Assembly (NCBI GenBank): GCA_050250895.1
Contig: JBFWNU010000001.1
Location: 840,008-904,007 of the forward strand
Origin: Vulcanimicrobiota bacterium
Lineage (GTDB): Bacteria > Vulcanimicrobiota > Xenobia > Xenobiales > JADMJV01
Length of the DNA stretch: 64,000 nucleotides
Reading direction: 5' to 3'
The translations under genes were made by a program, and so were the position numbers. Positions 10,179 to 61,347 of the stretch are shown piece by piece. Below the pieces are notes generated by a model. It saw only the letters and a list, made by a program, of their open reading frames with translations. It did not search any database and was not told the DNA's origin. Each line of letters begins with the position of its first letter. Within the stretch, counting starts at the first letter, position 1.

Positions 10179-13100
10179 ACGCGCCTTTTTCTGCCACCAC
10201 CCAGGCCTGGTTCGAGCGCCATTTCGCCGCCCCGACCAAGGTCCAGCGAGAAGGCTGGGAGGCCATCTCGCGGGGCGAGCACGCCTTGCTGCTGGCTCCT
10301 ACCGGCAGCGGCAAGACGCTGGCGGCTTTTCTGTGGTGCATCGACCGCCTGATCAACCAGAACCAGCGCAAAGGCACCTCGGTAGTCTATGTCTCGCCCT
10401 TGAAAGCGTTGGTCTACGACATCGAACGCAATCTGCGGGCGCCCCTGGCCGGCGTCACCCGGGCCGCTCAACTCGAGAATCCCCCCACCGTGGCGGTGCG
10501 CACCGGCGACACCCCTCAGCGGGAACGGGCCCGCCAACTAAAGCATCCGGCCGACATTCTGGTCACCACCCCAGAATCGCTCTACCTGATGTTGGGCTCG
10601 CGCCAGGCTCTGAATCTGACCGCCGTCGAGACGGTCATCATCGACGAAATCCACGCTCTGGCCGGCACCAAGCGAGGGGCCCATCTAGCCCTGACCCTCG
10701 AGCGCCTGGCCCGACTGGGCCAGGGCGATCCGCAGCGAGTAGGTTTGTCGGCCACCGTGCGTCCGGTCGACACGGTGGCCCGTTACCTGGGTGGCGATCG
10801 GCCCGTTACCGTCGTCGATACCCTCGAGCCCCCCCATATCGAGCTCGAGATCATCGTTCCGGTCGAAGACATGGAAAATCCCGGACCTGCGCCCGAACCC
10901 TCCGGGGGCTCGGTCTTGGGTCAGCTGCTCTCACAAGAGCAGGGGTCCGAAGGCACCGCCAGTGTGTGGCCCTCGATCTACCCGCGCCTGCTCGAGCAGA
11001 TTCAGGCTCATCGCTCGACCATCGTGTTCGTCAATAGCCGCGGCCTGTGCGAACGGCTGGCTCTGCGGCTCAACGAACTGGCCGGTCAGGAGCTGGTGCG
11101 GGCCCATCATGGTAGCGTCTCGCACGAAAAACGGGAAGAGATGGAAGAATCGCTCAAGAGCGGCCAGCTCAAGGCGATCATCGCCACCAGCTCGTTGGAA
11201 CTGGGCATCGACATGGGAGCGGTCGACCTGGTGCTGCTGGTCGAATCGCCCGGCTCGGTGGCGCGAGGACTGCAAAGGGTCGGGCGGGCTGGTCACCAGG
11301 TCGGCGAAATCAGCGCCGGGAAGATCTTTCCCAAGTTTCGCGGAGATCTGCTCGAGTGCGCGGTGGTGGCCAATCTGATGCGGCAGGGAGCCCTGGAGCC
11401 CCTGCGATTGCCCCATAACCCACTCGACGTGTTGGCCCAGCAGGTTGTGGCCATGGGCGCCACCGGGCCTCTCAAGCTCGAAGAACTCGAAGCCTTGCTG
11501 GCCCGCACGGCCAGCTTTGAAAGCCTGTCGCGCGAGATTTTGTTGGGACTGCTCGACATGCTGAGCGGGCGGTTCCCCTCCACCGATTTCGGTGAACTAC
11601 GGGCCCGGCTGGTCTGGGATCGCGACACCGACACGCTGACCGCTCGACCGGGGGCCAAACAGCTGGCCCTGGTCAATGCCGGCACCATCCCCGACCGGGG
11701 CCTCTACGGTGTCTACATCGGTCACGACGGCCCCCGGGTGGGCGAACTCGACGAAGAGATGGTCCACGAGGTCCGGCCCGGTCAGAACTTCTTGCTGGGA
11801 GCCAGTTCCTGGCGCATTCAAGAGATCACACGGGATCGAGTCATCGTCAGCCCTGCCCCCGGTGAGCCGGGTCGCATGCCGTTCTGGCATGGCGATCGCC
11901 CCGGGCGACCCATCGAACTCGGCCGGGCCATCGGCGCGTTCCTGGGCGAACTGGGCGCCAAGAAACGCTCGGCCGCCGAAAGTTGGCTCGAAGAGCACAC
12001 TGTTCTCGACGTTCTGGCTCGTCGCAACCTGCTGGACTATCTCGACGAGCAGAAGTCTTTCACGGGCGTGCTACCCACCGACCGGCGGGTCATCATCGAG
12101 CGTTTCCGGGATGAGCTGGGGGACTGGCGGGTCTGTATCCTGACCCCTTTTGGGGCACGCGTTCATGCTCCCTGGGCTCTCGCCATCGAGTCGGTGCTCA
12201 GCCAGCAAGCCGGCTTTGATTTTCAGACCCTTTGGACCGACGACGGCATCGTGCTCAGGCTAGCCGAAACCGACGAGTTGCCGCGCCTGGACCTGCTGGT
12301 GCCCGACCCCGATCTGGTCGAGGACCTGGTGCTCGAGCAACTGGCCAACTCGGCCGTGTTCGCCAGTCACTTCCGTGAGAACGCGGCTCGGGCCCTGCTC
12401 TTGCCCCGCCGGCGACCAGGCAAGCGCACCCCGCTGTGGAGCCAGCGTTTGCGAGCCAAGAACCTGCAAGCCGTAGCCATGGCCCACTCCAACTTTCCCA
12501 TCGTGCTCGAGACCTACCGAGCGTGCCTGCAAGACGTCTTCGACATGCCGTCGCTGGTCGAGTTGCTGCGCATGTTGTCGGATCGGCGCATCGCCCTCGA
12601 AGAGGTCGAGACCGAATCGGCTTCGCCCTTTGCTCGCTCGCTGGTCTTTGCCTATGTGGCCGAGTATCTGTACGAGGGCGACAATCCCCTGGCCGAGCGC
12701 AAGGCCCAGGCCCTGACCCTCGACCGCAACCTGCTGCGCGAACTGCTCGGACAAGAAGAGTTGCGCGACCTGCTCGACTCCGCCGTGCTCGACGAAGTCG
12801 AGGCCGAACTGCAGGGGCTAGCTGCGGACCGTCAGGCCACTTCTCGCGAAGCGCTATTTGACCGGCTGCGTCGCCTGGGAGACCTCAGCCTGGCCGAGGC
12901 CGAGGCCCGTTGCCAGGGGCCGGCTCGCCAGTGGCTCGGGGAACTCGAGAAAGAACGTCGGGTGGTCCGCCTTCACCTGGGCGGCGAGCCTCGCTGGGTC
13001 AGCCTGGAAGACGTGGCTCTCTACCGCGATGCTCTGGGGGCCGTCCCGCCTGGCGGGCTGCCGGCCGCTTTGCTCGAGCCCGTCAGCGGCGCGCTCGAGC

Positions 13101-53219: not shown

Positions 53220-53600
53220 TTGAAAAGAATCACGACCGTCGCGCTGTTGCTGTGCATCCTGGTGGCTCCAGCCCTGGCTCTGGAAGATATCAACGAGCCC
53301 GGCAAGAAGACCAGTGTCAAGCAACACTTCGAAGAAGGCAAGAAGACCATGGTCTTCTTTTACGCCCGCTGGGACAAAACCGCCAACCGTCTTCAGGTCG
53401 AACTCGACCGGTTCGACAAAGTCGACGAAGAGTGGAAAATCCTACGCGTTCGATTGAAAACCCTCAAGGATCCGGTGGCCGGCCAGTATGCTATCAGCCA
53501 GGTACCTGCGTTTCTCCTCTACGACGAAAAGGGCAATCTGATGGCCCAGGGCGCTACGGCCTATAGCGAAGTCCTCAAAATGCTCGAAGCTAATCGATGA
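53220..53600 (+). CDS. Secreted thioredoxin-fold protein lacking CxxC
   Basis: TTG start after GGAGG; signal peptide; FFYARWDKTA and cis-Pro-like VPAFLLYD. Confidence 0.65.
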   Translation: MKRITTVALLLCILVAPALALEDINEPGKKTSVKQHFEEGKKTMVFFYARWDKTANRLQVELDRFDKVDEEWKILRVRLKTLKDPVAGQYAISQVPAFLLYDEKGNLMAQGATAYSEVLKMLEANR

Positions 53601-54763
53601 CCGAACTGGCCAGTTGGCGCGCCGACACCCCCGGCTGCGCCCAGGTAGCCCATTTCAACAACGCCGGAGCAGCCTTGATGCCTGGTCCCGTCATTCGGGC
53701 GGTAAACGAGCATCTACAGCTGGAAGCCGAGCGCGGGGGGTACGAGGCGGCCCGTCGCCACCACGACCGACTCGAAGCGGTCTATGACTCGGTGGCCCGT
53801 CTTCTGGGCTGTGCACGCCACCAGGTGGCCCTGCTCGAAAATGCCACCCGCGCCTGGGACACGGTGTTCTATTCGCTGCCGCTGCGAGCGGGCGACCGCA
53901 TCCTCACCTCGGTCTCCGAGTATGCCAGCAACTACATCGCCTTTCTCCAGCGCGCCCGCCACACCGGAGCGTGCATCGAGGTCGTTCCCAACGACCGTCA
54001 CGGGCAACTCGACCTGGCCGCCCTGGCCGAGATGCTCGATGAGCGGGTTGTGCTAGTGGCCGTCAACCATGTTCCCACCAACAGCGGGTTGGTTCAACCG
54101 GCCGCGGCGATTGGTGCTCTGCTGGCCGACCATCCCGCCCTTTACCTTCTGGATGCCTGCCAATCGGTAGGCCAGATGCCCACCCAGGTGGACGATCTCG
54201 GCTGCGATTTTCTCTCGGCTACCAGCCGAAAATATCTGCGAGGCCCGCGAGGGGTTGGCTTTCTGTATGTCCGCCGACCGGCAGCCCTCGAGCCGGCCGT
54301 GTTGGACCTGCATGCAGCCCAGTGGACCGCGCCCCAAAGCTATACCATCCGAGAGGACGCGCGACGGTTCGAGACCTGGGAGGGATTCGTAGCCGGACGC
54401 CTGGGGTTGGGGGCGGCCGTCGACTACGCTCTCGAAGTGGGCCTGAAGCGAGCTTGGGCGCGCCTGTCGCGATTGGCCGAGCAACTCCGGAGCAAGCTGT
54501 CGCAGATAGAAGGAATTACCTTGACCGACTACGGCGAGAGACTGGGCGGAATCGTGACGTTCACTTGCGGTCTGGCTGCCGACGACCTCCGGGACCGCCT
54601 CGAGCGAGAAAACATCAATGTGTCGACCTGTTCTAACTTCTCCGCTCGCCTGGACATGGAGGGCAAAGGACTAGAAAGAGTAGTGCGGGCCTCGGTGCAT
54701 TACTACAACAGCGAGGACGAAATCGACCGATTGGCTCAAACTCTGAGTTTGCTCAGGGCCTGA
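53597..54763 (+). CDS. Class V PLP-dependent enzyme (cysteine desulfurase / C-S lyase-like)
   Basis: HFNNAGA, LDACQSVG, ATSRKYLRGPRG and RASVHYYN. Confidence 0.87.
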   Translation: MTELASWRADTPGCAQVAHFNNAGAALMPGPVIRAVNEHLQLEAERGGYEAARRHHDRLEAVYDSVARLLGCARHQVALLENATRAWDTVFYSLPLRAGDRILTSVSEYASNYIAFLQRARHTGACIEVVPNDRHGQLDLAALAEMLDERVVLVAVNHVPTNSGLVQPAAAIGALLADHPALYLLDACQSVGQMPTQVDDLGCDFLSATSRKYLRGPRGVGFLYVRRPAALEPAVLDLHAAQWTAPQSYTIREDARRFETWEGFVAGRLGLGAAVDYALEVGLKRAWARLSRLAEQLRSKLSQIEGITLTDYGERLGGIVTFTCGLAADDLRDRLERENINVSTCSNFSARLDMEGKGLERVVRASVHYYNSEDEIDRLAQTLSLLRA

Positions 54764-55296: not shown

Positions 55297-55433
55297 AATG
55301 GGAACTTGCGATCCGAAAAGCGCGTTGTTGAGGCCGTCAAGGAGGGATCGTTCTGTCAGAACGATAACTAGTGCACCCCCGTTACCACTACCGTGCCCGC
55401 CGCCAGGCAGGCTCAGGAAAGGAACTCAGCAAA

Positions 55434-56573
55434 GTGAAATTTCCCCCATTCGATCTCCAGCGCCTCTTGAAAACGGTCTTCGAGCCAGCCAAAGGCGAAA
55501 AGGTCTGTATTCTGATCGACCTGGACGACCCCACCAAAGTCCGCGATTTCGCCTTTCTGAAAGACTCTCGCTGGAGCGTCCAAAAGATGGCCCACGACCA
55601 CTTCTATCAGGGCCTGAAAAACGGGGCTGCCGAAGCTCTTGGTCTGACCGGAGGCGAGCTTTTCTGCTATGAGATGACCGGCGGCAGCAACCTCGACCTG
55701 CCGGACCGGGCCGTGGCCGTCGACGGCACCGAACTTAGCCTGGAGAAGGACATTTACCCCAACTACGACCTGATTCTCTGCATCTCGACCTATTCGGCCA
55801 CCGCTCCGCTGACCGCCTCGGCCAAGCAGCACGGCTTCCGCGGGGCGACCCTGCACGGACTCAACGACATCATTCTCAATTCGGGTCTGGCCGTCGACTA
55901 CAACCAGGTGAGCGAGCAAGCCGAGCGCCTGCGCAAAGGCATGTCGGGTGCTGACGCGGTCGAGATCGACACCAGCGTGAACGGCAAGACCTATACCGTT
56001 CGCATCGAGTTGGGCAAGCAAGAAGCCCAAAAGAGCCACGGTCTGTGCCGCACCGGGCCCGACATCGCCAACCTTCCGGCTGGCGAGGTCTACTTTGTTC
56101 CTACGGGAGGCGAGGGCCAATTCCCCTTCAAGCTCGAAGACGGCAGCCTGGCCCTGCTCGAGGTCGAGGGTGGACGCGTGGTCGAAGTCGGCTTCCTGTC
56201 TGGCGACCAGACCGAGGTCGAGTCCTTCCGCCAGCGAATCCTAACCGACCCTGCCACCGGCTTTTTGGGCGAGCTGGGCTTCGGCACTCAGGAACTGCCC
56301 GTTTCTGGCCAGGACATTCAAGACGAGAAGATCTTCGGTACCTTCCACCTGGCCACCGGACGCAACGACCACCTCGGCGGAGACATTACCACCGACAAGT
56401 TCGAAGAGAAGAAGAACGCTTCGCACGACGACATCCTCTTCTCGCGCGAGAAGACTCCCGAGATCGGCGCCCCCAAAGTGCGTATGTATCGGGGAGACTC
56501 GGTGCAGGTGCTCTACGAGAACTATGGAGCAGGAGAGTATCTGAAATCGCTGGCCCATGGCCAACCCGTATGA
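55434..56573 (+). CDS. Aminopeptidase-like protein (M29/thermophilic metalloprotease fold)
   Basis: NLPAGEVY, GELGFG, DEKIFGTFHLATG and HDD. Confidence 0.72.
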   Translation: MKFPPFDLQRLLKTVFEPAKGEKVCILIDLDDPTKVRDFAFLKDSRWSVQKMAHDHFYQGLKNGAAEALGLTGGELFCYEMTGGSNLDLPDRAVAVDGTELSLEKDIYPNYDLILCISTYSATAPLTASAKQHGFRGATLHGLNDIILNSGLAVDYNQVSEQAERLRKGMSGADAVEIDTSVNGKTYTVRIELGKQEAQKSHGLCRTGPDIANLPAGEVYFVPTGGEGQFPFKLEDGSLALLEVEGGRVVEVGFLSGDQTEVESFRQRILTDPATGFLGELGFGTQELPVSGQDIQDEKIFGTFHLATGRNDHLGGDITTDKFEEKKNASHDDILFSREKTPEIGAPKVRMYRGDSVQVLYENYGAGEYLKSLAHGQPV

Positions 56574-57312
56574 AACCGATAAGCTGGTAGCTGAATACCT
56601 GCTTCTTCACTACGGTGAACCGGCCCAGGTCTTCCCTTACGGCTTCGGCCCCAGGGAGGCCCTGGGCTTTCCCGTGCGCTGCGTCCACGAGTTGGCCCAG
56701 CCCCAGCCCGGCTCGACCGCACTGGAGTTGGGATGCGCGGTGGGGCGGGCCGCCTTCGAACTTTCGCGCACCTGCTCGAGAGTCGTGGCCATCGACTACT
56801 CTCAAGCCTTTATCCAGGCTGCCCAGAGAATGGCCTACCAGCGCGAAGTGGCCTTCCGGGTGCCCGATGAAGGCGAACTGACCACCGAGTGTCAGGCCCG
56901 GCTCTCGGATGAAATGCACCCCGAACGGGTCGAATTCGAGGTAGGCGACGCCACCGCTCTGCGGGCCGATCTGGGCAGTTTCGACCTGGTGCTGGCCGCG
57001 AATCTGCTGTGCCGGCTGCCGGATCCCCAGCGCTTGCTCAGCCGGCTGCCCGAACTAGTCAACCCGGGCGGCAGGTTGGTGATTACCTCACCCTACACCT
57101 GGATGGAAGAATACACTCCGCGTTCACGCTGGCTGGGCGGCTTTCACCGGGACGGCGAAGCGGTTCGCAGCCTGAGCAGCTTGCAAGCGGCTCTGGCCGA
57201 CAGCTTTCAACTCGACGAGACCCGGGACGTCCCGTTCTTGATCCGCGAGCATGCCCGCAAATACCAGTGGAGCGTGGCCCAGGCCAGCCTGTGGCGGCGG
57301 GCAGGAGCCTGA
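56557..57312 (+). CDS. SAM-dependent methyltransferase resembling the OvoA C-terminal (mercaptohistidine N-methyltransferase) domain
   Basis: NPYETDKLVAEYLLLHYG, ALELGCAVGR, ANLLCRLPDP, SPYTW and PFLIREHARKYQ. Confidence 0.78.
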   Translation: MANPYETDKLVAEYLLLHYGEPAQVFPYGFGPREALGFPVRCVHELAQPQPGSTALELGCAVGRAAFELSRTCSRVVAIDYSQAFIQAAQRMAYQREVAFRVPDEGELTTECQARLSDEMHPERVEFEVGDATALRADLGSFDLVLAANLLCRLPDPQRLLSRLPELVNPGGRLVITSPYTWMEEYTPRSRWLGGFHRDGEAVRSLSSLQAALADSFQLDETRDVPFLIREHARKYQWSVAQASLWRRAGA

Positions 57313-57358: not shown

Positions 57359-57757
57359 TTGAAAAAGGTTTACCCTGAGCGATACGACTACCTCGAGGTC
57401 ACCGAGGTTGGCAAAGAACTCTTCGTTTTCTGTCCCAGAGAGAACCAGGCCTATGCCATGAACCCCACGGCCGCCGAGTTCTTTGGCTGGTGCGATGGCC
57501 AGACCTCGGTGTCAGAGATGGAGCAACGCCTAGGGGGCGGCGAGCAAGCTCACGATCTGGCTCTATTGACTCTCGGCTCGCTGCGTTCGCAGGGGTTGAT
57601 CGCCATGGACGAGGGTAGCCTCAACCGCCGTGAGTTCTTGCTAAAGTGGGGCACGGCAGCGGCCGCCCTGCCGGTCGTCTCTTCGGTCTTCGTTCCCAAA
57701 GCCGCCGAGGCAGCCAGTGCCACCAGCTCCACCACTACCACGGAAACGCCTGCTTGA
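57359..57757 (+). CDS. PqqD/RRE domain fused to an RR-leader and a Ser/Thr-rich tail (candidate precursor 1)
   Basis: EVGKELFVF...AYAMNPTAAEFFGWCDGQTSVSEM...LRSQGLI, then NRREFL...AAEAASATSSTTTTETPA. Confidence 0.8.
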   Translation: MKKVYPERYDYLEVTEVGKELFVFCPRENQAYAMNPTAAEFFGWCDGQTSVSEMEQRLGGGEQAHDLALLTLGSLRSQGLIAMDEGSLNRREFLLKWGTAAAALPVVSSVFVPKAAEAASATSSTTTTETPA

Positions 57758-57838
57758 GCTAGAGCCATGTCTGATGGCAGGAGTCTGCCCCTCTCGTCAG
57801 AAGTCCTGCCGCAGACTGATGACTAAGGGGGTCTGGTT

Positions 57839-58273
57839 ATGAAACGCACTTTCCCTGAACGCTACGAATATCTCGAGGTTACCGAGGTCGGCGACGAACT
57901 CTTCGTTTTCAGCCCTAAAGAGAACCAGGCCTATTCTCTGAATCCCACTGCAGCCAAACTTTTTGGTTGGTGCGACGGCAAGACCTCGGTGCCAGAGATG
58001 GAGCAACGCCTCGGAGGCGACGAGCAAGCCCGGGACCTGGTGCATTTGACTCTTGGCACACTGGCTTCGCAAGGACTGATCGCGATGGACGAGGGCGGCC
58101 TCAACCGACGAGAGTTCTTGCAAAAGTGGGGGGCGGCTGTGGCCGCCCTACCGGTGGTGACTTCGGTCTTCGTGCCCAAAGCTGCCCGGGCCGCCAGTGC
58201 CACCACCACCACGAGCACCACCGAAGAAGCCACGACCACCGAAGAATCTACCACTACCACAGAACCGCCTTGA
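57839..58273 (+). CDS. PqqD/RRE domain fused to an RR-leader and a Thr/Glu-rich tail (candidate precursor 2)
   Basis: Paralogue of 57359; NRREFL...AARAASATTTTSTTEEATTTEESTTTTEPP. Confidence 0.8.
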   Translation: MKRTFPERYEYLEVTEVGDELFVFSPKENQAYSLNPTAAKLFGWCDGKTSVPEMEQRLGGDEQARDLVHLTLGTLASQGLIAMDEGGLNRREFLQKWGAAVAALPVVTSVFVPKAARAASATTTTSTTEEATTTEESTTTTEPP

Positions 58274-58274
58274 G

Positions 58275-58934
58275 CTAAAAGCAATAGCCCAGATGAGCCA
58301 GTTCTCTCGCGAAGAGTTCCTCTACGTAGCGGCGGCTCTCGGGGGTAGGATACCACTTCATGTAGGGTTGCCGATCGCTGCGATATCTCGTCTTTGCTTT
58401 CGGTAGCTCGACTTGCGCCTCGATCCCGATCCGTTCAAGAGCCAGAGCCAGGTCGGCCTCGAGGTCCTCAAAGCGCCCGATGAAATCGACCGCCTGACGC
58501 CCCGCCAGACTCCAGATGTTCCAATCGGCCAACCTTCGGTAGCGACCCCGGGCGAGAAACTCTTGGAAGCTCAACCCTCTGGCGGCCCGAGAGCGTTGAA
58601 AGAAATAGCTCGAAACGAGCTTGTCAAAAGGATTTCTCTCAAAGCAAAACTTGAAGTAATCACTGAGAAACTCAATGCTCTCGCCTTGCGCCTTGAGCTT
58701 TTCGAGCACCTGCGCCAAGGTGACGTGAGCACGAAAGCGCAGGCGCCCCTCAGACGCCAGATGGTTCTGGGGCCCCGGATAGCCGAGCCGCCGCCGCAGA
58801 CGCTCATCCTCTGGACTGACTTCGGTGATGATATCCGCCGGCCCGCAAAACTGGGAAAGAAAGATCTCGATGCTCGTCCCAGCGGTCTTGTGGGTCTTGA
58901 GGAAAAGAAATTTATGCTTGTGGGACAAGATCAC
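58275..58934 (-). CDS. Sulfotransferase (Sulfotransfer_2-type)
   Basis: HKHKFLFLKTHKTAGTSI (5'-PSB), FERNPFDKLVSSY (3'-PB) and DFIGRFEDL. Confidence 0.82.
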   Translation of the reverse strand: MILSHKHKFLFLKTHKTAGTSIEIFLSQFCGPADIITEVSPEDERLRRRLGYPGPQNHLASEGRLRFRAHVTLAQVLEKLKAQGESIEFLSDYFKFCFERNPFDKLVSSYFFQRSRAARGLSFQEFLARGRYRRLADWNIWSLAGRQAVDFIGRFEDLEADLALALERIGIEAQVELPKAKTRYRSDRQPYMKWYPTPESRRYVEELFARELAHLGYCF

Positions 58935-59022
58935 TAGGGCGCCTTCCACGCCAAACTCGGTTGACCTTGGAGTTGGCCCTGGAAGGAACGGCTCATTCTC
59001 TCACAAAGGAGCGGAAACTACG

Positions 59023-59748
59023 ATGAGTTCGCGCAAATTTCGAGCCTATGGAGTGCCGTTCAGCATCGATGGTCCGGATTCGATCGAGCTGCCGGTAGGA
59101 ACCCAGGTCAGCTCGGAGGGGGTTGGCGTCGGTCTCCATTTTCAAATGCGGACCGAGGGCAAGGGTCGCGTTCTTTATCTCGATGGCCAAAGAATAGGGC
59201 GCCCCTATCGACGTCACGAGACTTTTCTCCGTCACGCAGCCAGAAAAGTCGAGTTTCAAATCGCCCTGCGGGCCCCCGACCTGGTCTTCGTTCACGCGGG
59301 GGTGGTCGAGTGGAGCGGTCTCGGTTGGTTGCTTCCGGGCTCTTCAAGGGCCGGCAAGAGCACCCTGGTGGACGCTCTCTTGCGAGCGGGGGCAACCTAC
59401 TATTCGGATGAGTTTGCCCTCATCGACGAACACGGTCTGGTGCACCCCTACCCTCGCCCCCTCAAGCTTCGCAACGGCACTCCCACCGCAGCCGCGAAGC
59501 TGGCCGACAAGCCTCTGGTAGTCGATAGGGTGCTGGTGACCGAGTTCGAACCAGGCGCGGCCTGGCAGCCTGTTTCCCTGAGCCCGAGCGAGGTCTGCGT
59601 TCAGCTGATGGCCCACACCCTCACGGCTCGTCGACACCCCGGTCGGGCCATGGCCTTTTTGGCCAGATTGGCCCAAGGCGCCCGAGGCTTTCAGAGTCTT
59701 CGCGGTGAGGTGGTCGAGACCGTCGAACGCTTGAAGGACCTGACATGA
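59023..59748 (+). CDS. HprK-related P-loop kinase
   Basis: RBS AAGGAG; FVHAGVV, GSSRAGKSTL, YYSDEFALID and HPYPRPL. Confidence 0.8.
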   Translation: MSSRKFRAYGVPFSIDGPDSIELPVGTQVSSEGVGVGLHFQMRTEGKGRVLYLDGQRIGRPYRRHETFLRHAARKVEFQIALRAPDLVFVHAGVVEWSGLGWLLPGSSRAGKSTLVDALLRAGATYYSDEFALIDEHGLVHPYPRPLKLRNGTPTAAAKLADKPLVVDRVLVTEFEPGAAWQPVSLSPSEVCVQLMAHTLTARRHPGRAMAFLARLAQGARGFQSLRGEVVETVERLKDLT

Positions 59749-60479
59749 CAGGCGAGCAGGTCAGGCTGCTGGTGCTGGGGGCGCCCCGGTCGGGGACCAC
59801 CCTGGTCACGGCCATGCTCGCCTGCCATCCCGAGATCGCCATGCTCAACGAGGATCTCAACGGTTCTATCAGGCTCTTGCTGTCCAAGCGTGTGGTGGGC
59901 AACAAGCTGTGCGTCCCTAATCAGATCGGGCTAGAGCCTCCGGGACACTTCGAGGCTATGGCCCGTCGTTTCTATTTCCGTCACCAGGCGGTCAGAAAAT
60001 TGGCGCGACGACTGGGTCTGGGCTGGTGGAACCCGATGTCCAGGCTGCCCCTGCGGGGCTATCTTCGCTTGCCGGGCAGCCGGGTGCTGGGCATCCTGCG
60101 CCACCCGGGGGCCGTGATTCCGTCGATCATGCGTCGCGGCGGACAGCCAGAGTGGGTGGCCCGGCGGCGATGGAACCAGGCTGTCGACATTCTAGCCCGT
60201 TTGAGACAGACCATCCCCGACCGTTGTATCCTGCTTTCCTTTGAAGAGCTACTCGAGAACCCACCGGTCGTGTTGGACCGGCTGCTCGAGCGGCTCGATT
60301 GTGCCTATGACCCACGGGTTTTGTTCGGTTTCGCGCATACCCGTAACTATCAAAACACCAGTCTGGATCGCTCGAAGATCGTGCCCGAATGGTCCGACGA
60401 CCAATGCGGCGGGCTCCGAAACTGGCGCCTCTACCAGGATTTGAAAGGCCTAACCATCGGCCACGAGAAGGATGCCTAG
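59745..60479 (+). CDS. Sulfotransferase
   Basis: VLGAPRSGTTLV, LRHPGAVIPS and SFEELLENP; ATGA-coupled to the kinase. Confidence 0.82.
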   Translation: MTGEQVRLLVLGAPRSGTTLVTAMLACHPEIAMLNEDLNGSIRLLLSKRVVGNKLCVPNQIGLEPPGHFEAMARRFYFRHQAVRKLARRLGLGWWNPMSRLPLRGYLRLPGSRVLGILRHPGAVIPSIMRRGGQPEWVARRRWNQAVDILARLRQTIPDRCILLSFEELLENPPVVLDRLLERLDCAYDPRVLFGFAHTRNYQNTSLDRSKIVPEWSDDQCGGLRNWRLYQDLKGLTIGHEKDA

Positions 60480-61347
60480 CGTGCTCATGCACGAAAAGAT
60501 GGTTTACCTCCAGCCTTTCGTGCGCTCTCCGCAGGCCGACGACATCGTCGTTCTGGGAAGCGGAAGAAGCGGCACCACCTGGCTGCTCGAGATGTTGATC
60601 AGCCTGCCTGGCTATCGCGGCGTGATGGAGCCGTTTCAGCCCAAGAACGCCAGCCACTTTCCCCAGAATCCCCGCTATAGCCGTCGCTATCTCAGAGAGG
60701 GCGCCTGTGAGCCCGAACTGGAGGCCTATTTTCAAAGGCTCTTTCACCAGGAACTCGACTCTGACTGGTGGTGCGCCTGGCCCGCTTTCAATCGGCGGCC
60801 CCGGCGTTACCAGACCGTGCTCAAGACCATTCGGGGCTTGCTGATGATCAACTGGATGAAGACCTTGCCCGTTCGCTTTATCTACTTGCAGCGCGAGCCG
60901 GTAGCTACCCTCGGCAGCTGGGTCAGAATCGGGTGGGGAGAATCGGTGACGGATCTGGCCGTGTTTGTAAACCAACCCGAGTTGGTGGAAGACCACCTTC
61001 AACCGGTCCACCACCTCCTCGGCCGAGTGCAAGCCGAGGGCAGCAAGTTCGAGCAGGCAGCCGCCTGCTGGTGGATCGAGAACCTGGTGGCCCAGAGAAC
61101 TCTACCGCCCGGCAGCCTGAGGCTCAGCTATCAAGAGCTTACTGACAATCGCCCAGAGAGCCTCGATCTCATCTGTGGCTTCATGGGTCAAGAGCGCCCG
61201 GAGTTCCTGGTCAGCAGCAGCCAGCGGCGTTCCAAAACGACGGTAGGAGTCACCCGGCCAAACCCTGAGCTGGAGAGAGCTGTTCGAAGAACGCTAGACT
61301 CGCTGGAGGAACTGGCCCCACGCACTGGTCGGGTCAGAAACGGCTGA
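60472..61347 (+). CDS. Sulfotransferase
   Basis: VLGSGRSGTTWL, MEPF, QREPVATLGS and SYQEL. Confidence 0.82.
   Translation: MPSVLMHEKMVYLQPFVRSPQADDIVVLGSGRSGTTWLLEMLISLPGYRGVMEPFQPKNASHFPQNPRYSRRYLREGACEPELEAYFQRLFHQELDSDWWCAWPAFNRRPRRYQTVLKTIRGLLMINWMKTLPVRFIYLQREPVATLGSWVRIGWGESVTDLAVFVNQPELVEDHLQPVHHLLGRVQAEGSKFEQAAACWWIENLVAQRTLPPGSLRLSYQELTDNRPESLDLICGFMGQERPEFLVSSSQRRSKTTVGVTRPNPELERAVRRTLDSLEELAPRTGRVRNG

Follow-up and report, generated by a model that had tools for sequence, protein, structure and literature searches.

An internal twin-arginine-like signal behind an RRE domain in two adjacent putative precursor genes

Two adjacent genes of the window (the whole 64,000-nucleotide stretch of DNA that was analysed) raise the question of what an export-like signal could do when it is located behind a folded PqqD-type RRE domain and not at the N-terminus. 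The combination of an RRE, an internal signal and a Ser/Thr tail, beside genes for a kinase and three sulfotransferases, suggests an undescribed route to modified, exported peptides.

Architecture of the two proteins

The two genes and their parts are arranged as follows, all on the forward strand.

57359..57757, forward strand: ORF1, RRE-led precursor with a TTG start, 132 aa
57359-57604, forward strand: RRE of ORF1, residues 1-82
57614-57718, forward strand: Tat-like signal of ORF1, residues 86-120, followed by a Ser/Thr tail, residues 121-132
57839..58273, forward strand: ORF2, RRE-led precursor with an ATG start, 144 aa
57839-58084, forward strand: RRE of ORF2, residues 1-82
58094-58198, forward strand: Tat-like signal of ORF2, residues 86-120, followed by a Ser/Thr/Glu tail, residues 121-144

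This layout of RRE, internal Tat-like signal and Ser/Thr tail is confirmed in both proteins. When the two genes are aligned, the TTG start of ORF1 falls on the ATG start of ORF2, and the upstream motifs GGGGG-N-CTGGTT and CTCTCGTCAGAA are common to both genes. As the original prediction had it, both proteins carry L88-N-R90-R91-E-F-L-(L/Q)-K-W-G at residues 88-98, with the arginine codons at 57626-57631 in ORF1 and 58106-58111 in ORF2. The motif is followed by a hydrophobic stretch of 16 residues, WGTAAAALPVVSSVFV in ORF1 and WGAAVAALPVVTSVFV in ORF2; the stretch had rightly been predicted for both proteins, but its wording 'AAALPVV' is exact for ORF1 only. Next comes P113-K-A-A116-(E/R)-A118-A-S120, which includes the anticipated AxA site and, in ORF2, the basic c-region residues K114 and R117. 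A cut after A118 would release 14 aa (9 Ser/Thr) from ORF1 and 26 aa (16 Ser/Thr) from ORF2, in agreement with the predicted core sizes. Comparison of the two genes gives a dN/dS of 0.18 for the RRE and 0.19 for the signal-like part, which points to purifying selection on both.

The same layout is found in 26 genes of this genome (23 aligned and three more seen). The Pfam PqqD profile (PF05402) matches ORF2 with an E-value of 5e-6 (27.2 bits, above the cut-off of 23.4) and ORF1 with 2.5e-4 (21.7 bits, just under it); at E≤0.01 it matches 10 of the 23 paralogues, and the NCBIfam profile PqqD_rel_X of the HPr-rel-A system matches 11. Residues 1-80 of ORF2 are modelled by AlphaFold2 with a pLDDT above 90, and the predicted fold is a winged helix with a three-stranded sheet (strands 13-17, 20-25 and 30-34) and three helices (36-44, 51-57 and 62-77). 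The best Foldseek matches of this model are RRE domains, with TM-scores by target of 0.70-0.80 and probabilities of about 1.0, but E-values of 9e-3 or weaker; they comprise TbiB1 with leader (5v1u), TigE, the RRE of PbtF (8t19), lasso B1 (6jx3), the TruD/LynD heterocyclases and PqqD (5sxy).

The signal across the family and its possible contact with the RRE

An exhaustive profile search returned 9,899 matches with E≤1e-3; with E≤1e-10 there were 5,225 (cluster representatives). The family is present in several soil phyla, and its nearest ESM Atlas clusters are named only automatically, e.g. 'hypothetical protein' or 'PqqD family protein'. Of the family, 151 members were aligned with MAFFT; they were the top matches of a family profile that itself contains the motif, so that the counts are partly circular. 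R90 is present in 151/151 members, R91 in 149 (with K in the other two), S or T at position 89 in 108, F93 in 86, L94 in 113, P113 in 144, A118 in 146 and S120 in 146, with T in three more. A proline lies in the middle of the h-region in 133/151 members. Counting by regular expression gives RR in 124/151 and AxAxS/T in 98/151, an undercount relative to the alignment. Lack of conservation of RR and AxA had been named as grounds against the original prediction; both are near-invariant in the 151 aligned members. Together, the recurrence in 26 genes and the conservation of these columns argue that the layout is more than chance. A relative in genome G014 has R-A in place of R-R, which counts against the export reading proposed below.

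The n-region of the conserved segment reads S/T/N-R-R-x-F-L-K/R; it is followed by about 16 residues of h-region (median of 16 in the 151 members) and a c-region P-x-P-A-x-A-x-S. The NCBIfam profile TAT_signal_seq (TIGR01409) matches residues 88-118 of ORF2 (20.0 bits vs a cut-off of 16.7) and, at E≤0.01, 4 of the 23 paralogues; ORF1 has no NCBIfam match at this threshold. Indeed, when the whole genome was searched in six frames with TIGR01409, five of the seven best matches were members of the RRE-led family, and TatC is encoded in the same genome. A Tat signal is, however, N-terminal by definition, which also counts against the export reading: here the arginines are residues 90-91, and in the 151 members their distance from the N-terminus has a median of 92 residues and a minimum of 70. 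We found no experimental precedent in the literature for a Tat signal preceded by a soluble folded domain. The invariance of Ser120, of which the signal-peptidase rule alone gives no account, likewise speaks against this reading.

Behind the conserved Ser the tails are hypervariable across the family, and most members carry Cys-rich domains in this place. For one such paralogue, the Cys-rich domain is modelled by AlphaFold2 with a pLDDT of 83-97; in a Foldseek search of this protein against PDB, only the RRE part was matched, the Cys-rich domain remaining without match. In some members (P0103, P0083, P0089, P0114 and P0080) only 0-8 residues follow the conserved Ser, which would leave almost nothing for export in those relatives and thus speaks against the export reading, though some of them may be truncated gene calls. 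ORF1 and ORF2 are best read, from these comparisons of sequence, as belonging to a large family of RRE-led precursors, so far uncharacterised, with hypervariable cargo, in this case a Ser/Thr-rich tail of 12-26 residues. Since the family is large, spans several phyla and bears only automatic names, a functional assignment would touch many genomes and provide a new handle for genome mining.

RRE domains bind peptide as an extra strand beside β3. An AlphaFold model had been suggested for checking whether the leader docks on the RRE; two models, those of ORF2 and of a Cys-rich paralogue, do place a β-strand in the second half of the h-region (residues 107-111 and 101-105, respectively), but with a pLDDT of only about 66-70. 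Covariation analysis (MI-APC) couples β3 and α3 of the RRE to the h-region, α3 being coupled with residues 97-108. For instance, Y32 in β3 and S109 rank fourth of all covarying pairs, and ranks 5 and 6 belong to the pairs of L70 in α3 with A99 and W97. Pairs between groove and h-region make up 15 of the top 30 vs 31% expected (Mann-Whitney p 9e-5, a value that is overstated because covarying pairs are not independent), with groove residues set from known RRE-leader complexes after the top pairs had been seen. A complex prediction of RRE residues 1-85 with residues 86-144 scored 0.02; it gave no answer and is counted neither way for binding. Collectively, the models and the covariation are suggestive of an RRE that may bind the twin-arginine segment of its own chain in cis.

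Neighbouring genes and a proposed route

Downstream of ORF2, four genes encode the candidate tailoring enzymes.

58275..58949, reverse strand: sulfotransferase (Pfam Sulfotransfer_2, E 1.2e-13, 52.2 bits vs a cut-off of 22), convergent with ORF2
59023..59748, forward strand: HprK-related kinase-like P-loop protein, starting at the ATG of MSSRKF
59745..60479, forward strand: sulfotransferase (Pfam Sulfotransfer_3, E 3.4e-17)
60472..61347, forward strand: second Sulfotransfer_3 sulfotransferase (E 3.2e-7, 31.3 bits vs a cut-off of 27)

The kinase-like protein has the P-loop GSSRAGKST and matches TIGR04352 (HprK_rel_A) with an E-value of 5.8e-17, at 61.7 bits and thus far under the curated cut-off of 200 bits; a sequence search found no relative of it in PDB. 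A longer GTG frame of this gene, from 58825, overlaps the sulfotransferase gene 58275..58949. The sulfotransferase encoded at 59745..60479 is distantly like the CurM sulfotransferase (4gbm_A, E 3.5e-6) and TPST chains (8e-6 to 1.6e-4). The nearest solved Sulfotransfer_3 relatives act on Tyr or on a polyketide and there is no Tyr in the tails of ORF1 and ORF2, which counts against the export reading. The scan of 12 ORFs at 52.3-64.0 kb found the kinase and the three sulfotransferases, but no discrete PqqD and no match to a peptidase, a nucleotidyltransferase or a transporter, ABC transporters included; a 400-aa ORF at 55371-56573 had no match at all.

Other loci were compared for the same association. 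A search of contigs with three short-tail proteins found two loci in genome contigs and six in metagenome contigs, of which L041, L049 and L050 were informative; on the metagenome contigs L049 and L050, a HprK_rel_A-like kinase lies directly upstream of the family members. The match at the Burkholderia locus L042 is confined to residues 88-118 and was set aside as a probable ordinary Tat signal. Next to L009, the third short-tail paralogue, lie a weak Sulfotransfer_3 match (E 5e-5) and a JmjC protein, and at L048, in G014, a relative with a Cys/Ser/Thr tail is flanked by a YcaO cyclodehydratase and a Sulfotransfer_2 protein. A link between the type of tail and the tailoring enzymes is also favoured by the 78 scanned neighbours of 20 Cys-rich paralogues, in which no sulfotransferase, YcaO or radical-SAM match was seen at E≤1e-8. 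No family member lies beside C1:2697801-2698586, which encodes the second-closest homologue of the kinase in the genome. In the only same-genus genome searched (G001, 98% complete), the family profile gave only one match, of another type, and hence no support for conservation of this particular cluster, a point against the export reading proposed next.

We propose, with a probability of about one half, that ORF1 and ORF2 are secretory precursors bearing their own RRE. The cytoplasmic RRE, carried on the substrate and not on an enzyme or a separate PqqD protein, would dock the HprK-like kinase and the three PAPS sulfotransferases encoded alongside, and these would modify the tail and/or the invariant Ser120; meanwhile the h-region of the signal may sit in the groove of the RRE. 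The Tat translocase would then pass the modified tail over the membrane as a hairpin, leaving the RRE in the cytoplasm, and signal peptidase I would cleave at A116-x-A118 (or A118-x-S120), giving a small anionic peptide in the periplasm. PAPS supply requires an APS kinase, which the genome encodes. More tentatively, the RRE of the substrate could be a built-in chaperone of the Tat signal, gripping the h-region during decoration of the tail and then releasing the finished product for export. Such a self-carried RRE would have an analogue in chaperones of the TorD/DmsD type, which bind Tat signals as separate proteins.

The export reading supposes that the segment is cleaved. It could instead be an uncleaved N-in/C-out anchor, inserted by Tat or Sec, in which case the functional part would be the cytoplasmic RRE, a membrane-tethered adaptor for other peptides or enzymes, and the tail a short outer stub of no importance. 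In 98/151 members the most hydrophobic 19-residue window has a Kyte-Doolittle mean of at least 1.6, which is compatible with a membrane anchor, as is the existence of relatives with tails of 0-8 residues, and internal Tat signals ending as transmembrane helices are described for Rieske-type dual Sec-Tat proteins (PMC5449189, PMC3471239). Yet the best windows of ORF1 and ORF2 score only 1.55 and 1.53, a proline commonly interrupts the h-region, and the near-invariant P-x-P-A-x-A-x-S right after the 16 residues is the pattern of a cleaved signal. Hypervariable tails that include confidently folded Cys-rich domains also fit a mere stub poorly, and the neighbours track the type of tail, YcaO accompanying the Cys/Ser/Thr tail and sulfotransferases the Ser/Thr tails; a permanent anchor seems to us rather unlikely.

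The position of Ser120, two residues past AxA, recalls the phosphorylated Ser3 of the LPP peptides, which likewise follows the cleavage site, and raises another reading: the segment could be a RiPP leader for the RRE and the enzymes and not an export signal at all, AxAxS being the site of a dedicated protease together with a kinase-target Ser, and export taking another route. Binding of such a leader would agree with the strand seen in the models and with the covariation between groove and h-region. This reading is nevertheless improbable, given a segment that fits the full Tat consensus, beyond a mere binding motif, the lack of any peptidase or transporter match in the scanned ORFs and the Cys-rich domains of most members, which would be expected outside the cytoplasm. 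Translation from Met83 (57605-57607 in ORF1, 58085-58087 in ORF2) would turn the segment into a textbook N-terminal Tat signal and make the RRE-containing form minor or regulatory. The proposed in-frame ATG (MDEG) does stand seven codons 5' of RR in both genes, but only 27/151 members have a Met in the 15 residues that precede RR, so that an internal start finds no support as a feature of the family. The RRE and the signal are, moreover, under equal purifying selection in one frame, and their covariation argues that the two parts function as one chain; we regard an ordinary preprotein made from Met83 as highly improbable.

To our knowledge, all described RiPP pathways have the recognition element on the side of the enzyme. 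If the export reading is correct, a substrate with its own RRE would reverse this logic, a general export signal could double as a leader peptide, Tat could act on a signal behind a folded domain, and Ser/Thr sulfation would be added to the chemistry of bacterial peptides. If the RRE is also a built-in chaperone, the system would gate itself ('modify, then export') and yield O-sulfated or phosphorylated Ser/Thr peptides as well as, from the paralogues, secreted Cys-rich mini-proteins; its thousands of members would form a new RiPP-like class. Our literature search found no description of a PqqD/RRE fold joined to a twin-arginine signal in a precursor, and the main text of the RRE-Finder paper has no mention of signal peptide, HPr, sulfotransferase or transmembrane.

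Comparison with known systems

Among the closest counterparts are the linear polyphosphorylated peptides (LPP), RiPP clusters of Bacillota described by Popov et al. (2026, PMC13381572). In these clusters a stand-alone RRE brings the precursor to a protease resembling signal peptidase I, and a HprK-like kinase polyphosphorylates core Ser3 (PMC13381572). Both systems combine a PqqD-type RRE, a HprK-like kinase, leader removal of the signal-peptidase-I type (which we infer here), a conserved Ser just behind the site of cleavage and C-terminal cores that vary, in LPP with lengths of 35-200 aa (PMC13381572). On the other hand, the LPP RRE is a separate protein and the LPP leader has a YxxP motif in place of the twin-arginine signal (PMC13381572), whereas here the RRE is fused to the presumed substrate. 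LPP clusters also encode LppS (the peptidase), an NTP-transferase and a MsbA-like exporter (PMC13381572); these find no counterpart among the 12 window ORFs scanned, and the window has three sulfotransferases instead. By the features of an LPP cluster (discrete RRE, SpI-like peptidase, NTP-transferase, MsbA-like exporter and YxxP), the ORFs scanned at 52.3-64.0 kb do not qualify as one.

The HPr-rel-A system (TIGR04352, TIGR04353) and paeninodin-type lasso tailoring provide the best NCBIfam matches of the kinase and PqqD domains, all of them scoring far under the curated cut-offs and thus outside the equivalog range. Three other loci of the same genome combine a discrete PqqD, a HprK-like kinase and a sulfotransferase, whereas in ORF1 and ORF2 the PqqD domain and the presumed substrate form one protein. 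The scanned ORFs next to the two genes include, unlike a lasso cluster, no Asn-synthase-like cyclase and no B2 transglutaminase-like protease.

The segment has the elements of known Tat signals: S/T-R-R-x-F-L-K, an h-region of weak hydrophobicity, a c-region with Pro and a basic residue, and AxA. It differs in its start near residue 88, where a soluble folded domain precedes it, being neither N-terminal nor placed behind Sec-inserted helices as in the dual-pathway proteins described in PMC5449189.

Sulfonation of RiPPs is called 'rare and underexplored' in a report on sulfonated lanthipeptides (PMC11143521), where sulfotransferases are likewise encoded beside a ribosomal peptide substrate. The residue sulfonated there is Tyr5 of a cyclised lanthipeptide, modified in a leader-independent manner (PMC11143521), whereas the tails here contain no Tyr. 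Finally, bufferins are MNIO-modified RiPPs with Sec signal peptides, cleaved at the signal-peptidase site (PMC11626156). Their signal is N-terminal, their precursor is described without an RRE and their enzymes are MNIO and a DUF2063 protein (PMC11626156). Nevertheless, bufferins would share with the RRE-led family the order of cytoplasmic modification, export by a general pathway and a signal-peptidase cut, and many cargos are Cys-rich in both (PMC11626156).

Organization of the tandem proteins and their neighbourhood

ORF1 and ORF2 are encoded in tandem and share 77-79% identity, with the TTG start of ORF1 aligned with the ATG of ORF2. The duplication also takes in about 60 nt 5' of each start (CTCTCGTCAGAA..., GGGGG-N-CTGGTT-start). 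The genes of the region are as follows.

Genes of the pair and its surroundings in the window
53597-54763: EgtE/SufS-like PLP enzyme, upstream of the pair
55371-56573: 400-aa ORF without family, upstream of the pair
56557-57312: ovoA-C-terminal-type methyltransferase, upstream of the pair
Upstream of the pair: PilZ protein
57359-57757, + strand: ORF1, 132 aa, TTG start
57839-58273, + strand: ORF2, 144 aa, ATG start
58275-58949, - strand: Sulfotransfer_2 gene, adjoining the pair
59023-59748: HprK-related-kinase-like P-loop protein
59745-60479 and 60472-61347: two Sulfotransfer_3 genes
Past the sulfotransferases: TamB gene

In both proteins, a PqqD-like domain is followed by L88-N-R-R-E-F-L-(L/Q)-K-W-G, a hydrophobic stretch of 16 residues (Ala/Val/Leu/Ser, with Pro105 at its centre), the motif P113-K-A-A-(E/R)-A-A-S120 and a tail of 12 or 24 residues composed almost wholly of Thr, Ser and Glu. 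The analysis thus confirmed the shared layout read in the original prediction, including the 14 residues (9 Ser/Thr) and 26 residues (16 Ser/Thr) that follow A-x-A, and extended its support beyond what could be known from the window. ORF2 exceeds the Pfam PqqD cut-off and, over residues 88-118, that of the NCBIfam Tat-signal model; ORF1 falls slightly under the former and had no match in the NCBIfam model search. Since dN/dS between the two genes is 0.18 in the RRE (RiPP-recognition element) part and 0.19 in the signal-like part, both parts are maintained as coding sequence.

No discrete PqqD, peptidase or transporter was found among the ORFs neighbouring the pair. The upstream methyltransferase, 400-aa ORF, PilZ and EgtE/SufS-like genes are taken to be unrelated to it. 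The 400-aa ORF, which matched neither Pfam nor NCBIfam, lies downstream of the EgtE/SufS-like gene and overlaps the methyltransferase gene start by 17 nt at its 3' end, and might be part of a pathway of the thiohistidine type.

A conserved internal Tat-type segment

When 1.84 billion cluster representatives, from a library whose sequences are at most 50% identical to one another, were searched exhaustively with the profile, 9,899 matched at E<=1e-3; of these, 5,225 reached E<=1e-10 and 92 reached E<=1e-30. From those listed, 149 were aligned with the two window proteins. The profile that selected these 151 members holds the motif, so the following column counts are partly circular: R90 is present in 151/151 and R91 in 149/151 (K in the other 2), preceded by Ser/Thr in 108/151; F93 occurs in 86/151 and L94 in 113/151, with positions 95-96 mostly K/R; Pro105 is kept in 133/151, Pro113 in 144/151, A116 in 118/151, A118 in 146/151 and S120 in 146/151, plus 3 Thr. 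The twin arginines and the A-x-A site are therefore retained among homologues, as had been anticipated. In 76 of the 151, RR to Ser spans 31 residues (overall range 23-35).

The internal segment fits the curated Tat model, and five of the seven six-frame TIGR01409 matches found genome-wide (E<=0.01) belong to the family; the source genome also encodes TatC. Taken with the conservation, this supports, at the sequence level, the proposed reading of the segment as a conserved internal Tat-type signal; its position argues the other way, since RR lies at a median of 92 and a minimum of 70 residues from the N-terminus. Also in favour of a signal are the shortness of the h-region (median 16 residues), which is interrupted by a conserved Pro and followed by P-x-P-A-x-A, and the basic residues in the c-region of ORF2; the invariant Ser120, which the signal-peptidase rule leaves unexplained, counts against it. 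From work on thylakoids, a Tat signal can act as a hairpin, its extended N-terminus being left behind. Tat signals in an internal position are known from Rieske-type proteins, but there they follow Sec-inserted helices (PMC5449189 and PMC3471239).

Three other readings were weighed. An uncleaved membrane anchor would be compatible with the hydrophobicity of the family, in which a 19-residue window reaches 1.6 in 98/151 members, but the window pair itself attains only 1.55 and 1.53, and we consider an anchor unlikely. Still less probable is a leader without export function. Internal initiation, suggested earlier as a source of an RRE-free form, was not supported and is very improbable.

Matches to the family at E<=1e-3 were found in 17 of 41 related genomes, mostly in two taxonomic families (11/15 and 4/5 genomes, compared with 1/19 in a third), and an even, phylum-wide sample gave matches at E<=1e-10 in 27/151 genomes. 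A Microthrixaceae MAG encodes a member (L041:7938-8786) in which an RRE and L-S-R-R-A-L-I precede a hydrophobic stretch, followed in turn by an Ig-like domain and a Thr/Ala-rich tail; with this actinobacterial protein, the layout therefore crosses phyla. In the ESM Atlas, the closest clusters comprise proteins of 138-164 aa, named 'hypothetical' or 'PqqD family', that come from Gemmatimonadota and Acidobacteriota, and their structural alignment extends to residue 119, taking in the signal-like part.

The N-terminal RRE and its possible contact with the signal

AlphaFold2, run with a 150-row alignment, modelled residues 1-80 at pLDDT >90 as a winged-helix RRE, with its three strands and its three helices. 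The best Foldseek matches are the leader-bound lasso B1 proteins 5v1u, 5v1v and 6jx3, TigE, the PbtF RRE, the TruD/LynD heterocyclase RRE and PqqD itself, with probabilities near 1 yet E-values all 9e-3 or weaker. In NCBIfam, 11 of 23 paralogues have the HPr-rel-A system PqqD protein as their best relative. On the evidence of these models, the N-terminal domain of the family is an RRE.

Two separate AlphaFold2 runs, on ORF2 and on a Cys-rich paralogue with a different alignment, predicted a helix across RRxFLxK followed by a five-residue beta-strand in the later half of the h-region (pLDDT about 66-72). Covariation was examined by MI-APC on the 151 sequences, ranking pairs at least 5 residues apart. 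Y32 (beta3) with S109 is rank 4 of all pairs, and L70 (alpha3) with A99 and W97 gives ranks 5 and 6. When a groove set (residues 28-35 and 60-77), drawn from RRE-leader complexes after the top pairs had been seen, was compared with the remainder of the RRE, its pairs with the h-region (95-112) scored higher, with 15 of the 30 top pairs against 31% expected (Mann-Whitney p 9e-5, for non-independent pairs and related sequences). No comparable MI-APC excess linked the groove set to the n-region or c-region in these sequences. Binding of the signal in cis by the protein's own RRE is thus plausible, the covariation being a lead and not proof.

Cargo expansion, tailoring loci and known systems

In the 9.5-Mb source genome, 24 tblastn matches became, after frame reading, 26 genes with the full layout, a copy number far above that of every other genome searched. 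Short Cys-free tails occur in three (ORF1, ORF2 and C1:499867); in each of the remaining 23, the C-terminal domain contains Cys and measures about 100-130 residues, most of these domains ending in Y-x-C-C-x-x-C. In four paralogues, a tandem pair of RRE-like domains precedes the RR signal.

Paralogues with Cys domains (examples) or two RREs
L015:9739-10437: Cys domain
L016:8883-9575 and 11224-11922: Cys domains
L021:9869-10762: Cys domain, two RREs
L018:9414-10343: two RREs
L024:9709-10587: two RREs
L025:9499-10407: two RREs

The Cys-rich domain of L015 was modelled confidently (pLDDT 83-97) and gave no Foldseek match against the PDB. Across the 151 members, tails after the conserved Ser measure 0-160 residues. 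Cys-rich domains account for 135/151, a share inflated by the profile; the tails also include Ser/Thr runs, stretches rich in Gly/Asp/Pro, Cys peptides of knottin size and sequences as short as GGLPP. The source genome also holds a family pseudogene with five stops (C1:1560648) and two near-identical Cys-rich cargo copies lacking RRE and RR (C1:3776746-3777174 and C1:3779310-3779759; N-terminus MPGEVADIDFL...), one with a deletion spanning the P-x-P-A-x-A site. Perhaps these two are copies in decay, or else a form with different targeting.

At least three loci of the source genome combine an HprK-like kinase, sulfotransferases and a discrete PqqD, with genes called by an ORF heuristic and domains named partly from motif reading.

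Kinase and sulfotransferase loci of the source genome
C1:2161831-2167896: with PqqD, plus YcaO
C9:227737-236236: with PqqD, plus ABC transporter and Asn-synthase-like gene
C1:3477050-3483408: with PqqD
C4:128270-132845: further locus, HprK-like kinase and sulfotransferases

One of these four loci has an Asn-synthase-like gene with a 93-aa ORF. Kinase and sulfotransferase look like a recurrent tailoring pair of this genome. Because at least three such loci share the genome, the window cluster looks like a version of this set of tools in which the RRE has been transferred to the substrate, fused and discrete versions standing side by side. On two metagenome contigs (L049 and L050), an HprK_rel_A-like kinase lies immediately 5' of family members, and the locus of the third short-tail paralogue (L009) has a weak Sulfotransfer_3 match (E 5e-5) and a JmjC protein alongside. 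The 78 neighbours of 20 Cys-rich paralogues, varied housekeeping genes, gave no sulfotransferase, YcaO or radical-SAM match at E<=1e-8, a stricter scan that would miss a match as weak as that at L009. The genome encodes an APS kinase. Elsewhere in it, a 274-aa Gly-rich protein (MNFIGNNNQGGMFGMGGIGG..., C1:2698653-2699477) adjoins the closest paralogue of the window's kinase, 43% identical to it. In another genome (G014:C73), a relative at L048:104-3503 has T-R-A-D-F-L, with R-A replacing R-R, and a tail reading ACSCSCSC... (ACSCSCSCTTVTPPC...); it is flanked by a YcaO/TOMM cyclodehydratase with its own leader-binding domain and by Sulfotransfer_2.

For the window pair, we propose that the RRE carried by the precursor would dock the kinase and sulfotransferases, and that the tail would be modified, exported and then cleaved off, a full model to which we give a probability of roughly 0.5. 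Our literature search found no account of a substrate carrying its own fused RRE, nor of a PqqD domain placed in front of a Tat signal. RiPP precursors able to use a general signal peptide are described for bufferins (sections of PMC11626156), and PMC11143521 describes sulfonation as rare in RiPPs, the sulfonated residue of its own system being a Tyr. The present instance of the family adds a sulfotransferase-rich context with Ser/Thr tails, a 26-copy expansion, the coexistence of fused-RRE and discrete-RRE kits in one genome and a covariation signal. The closest described system is that of the linear polyphosphorylated peptides (LPP), for which sections of PMC13381572 describe a discrete RRE that presents the precursor to a protease resembling signal peptidase I, and the addition of several phosphates to core Ser3 by an HprK-like kinase. 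The A-x-A of our family, with an invariant Ser two residues on, is a striking parallel, whereas LPP clusters, as those sections present them, differ in having a YxxP leader, in encoding a peptidase and an exporter of their own, and in lacking a Tat motif.
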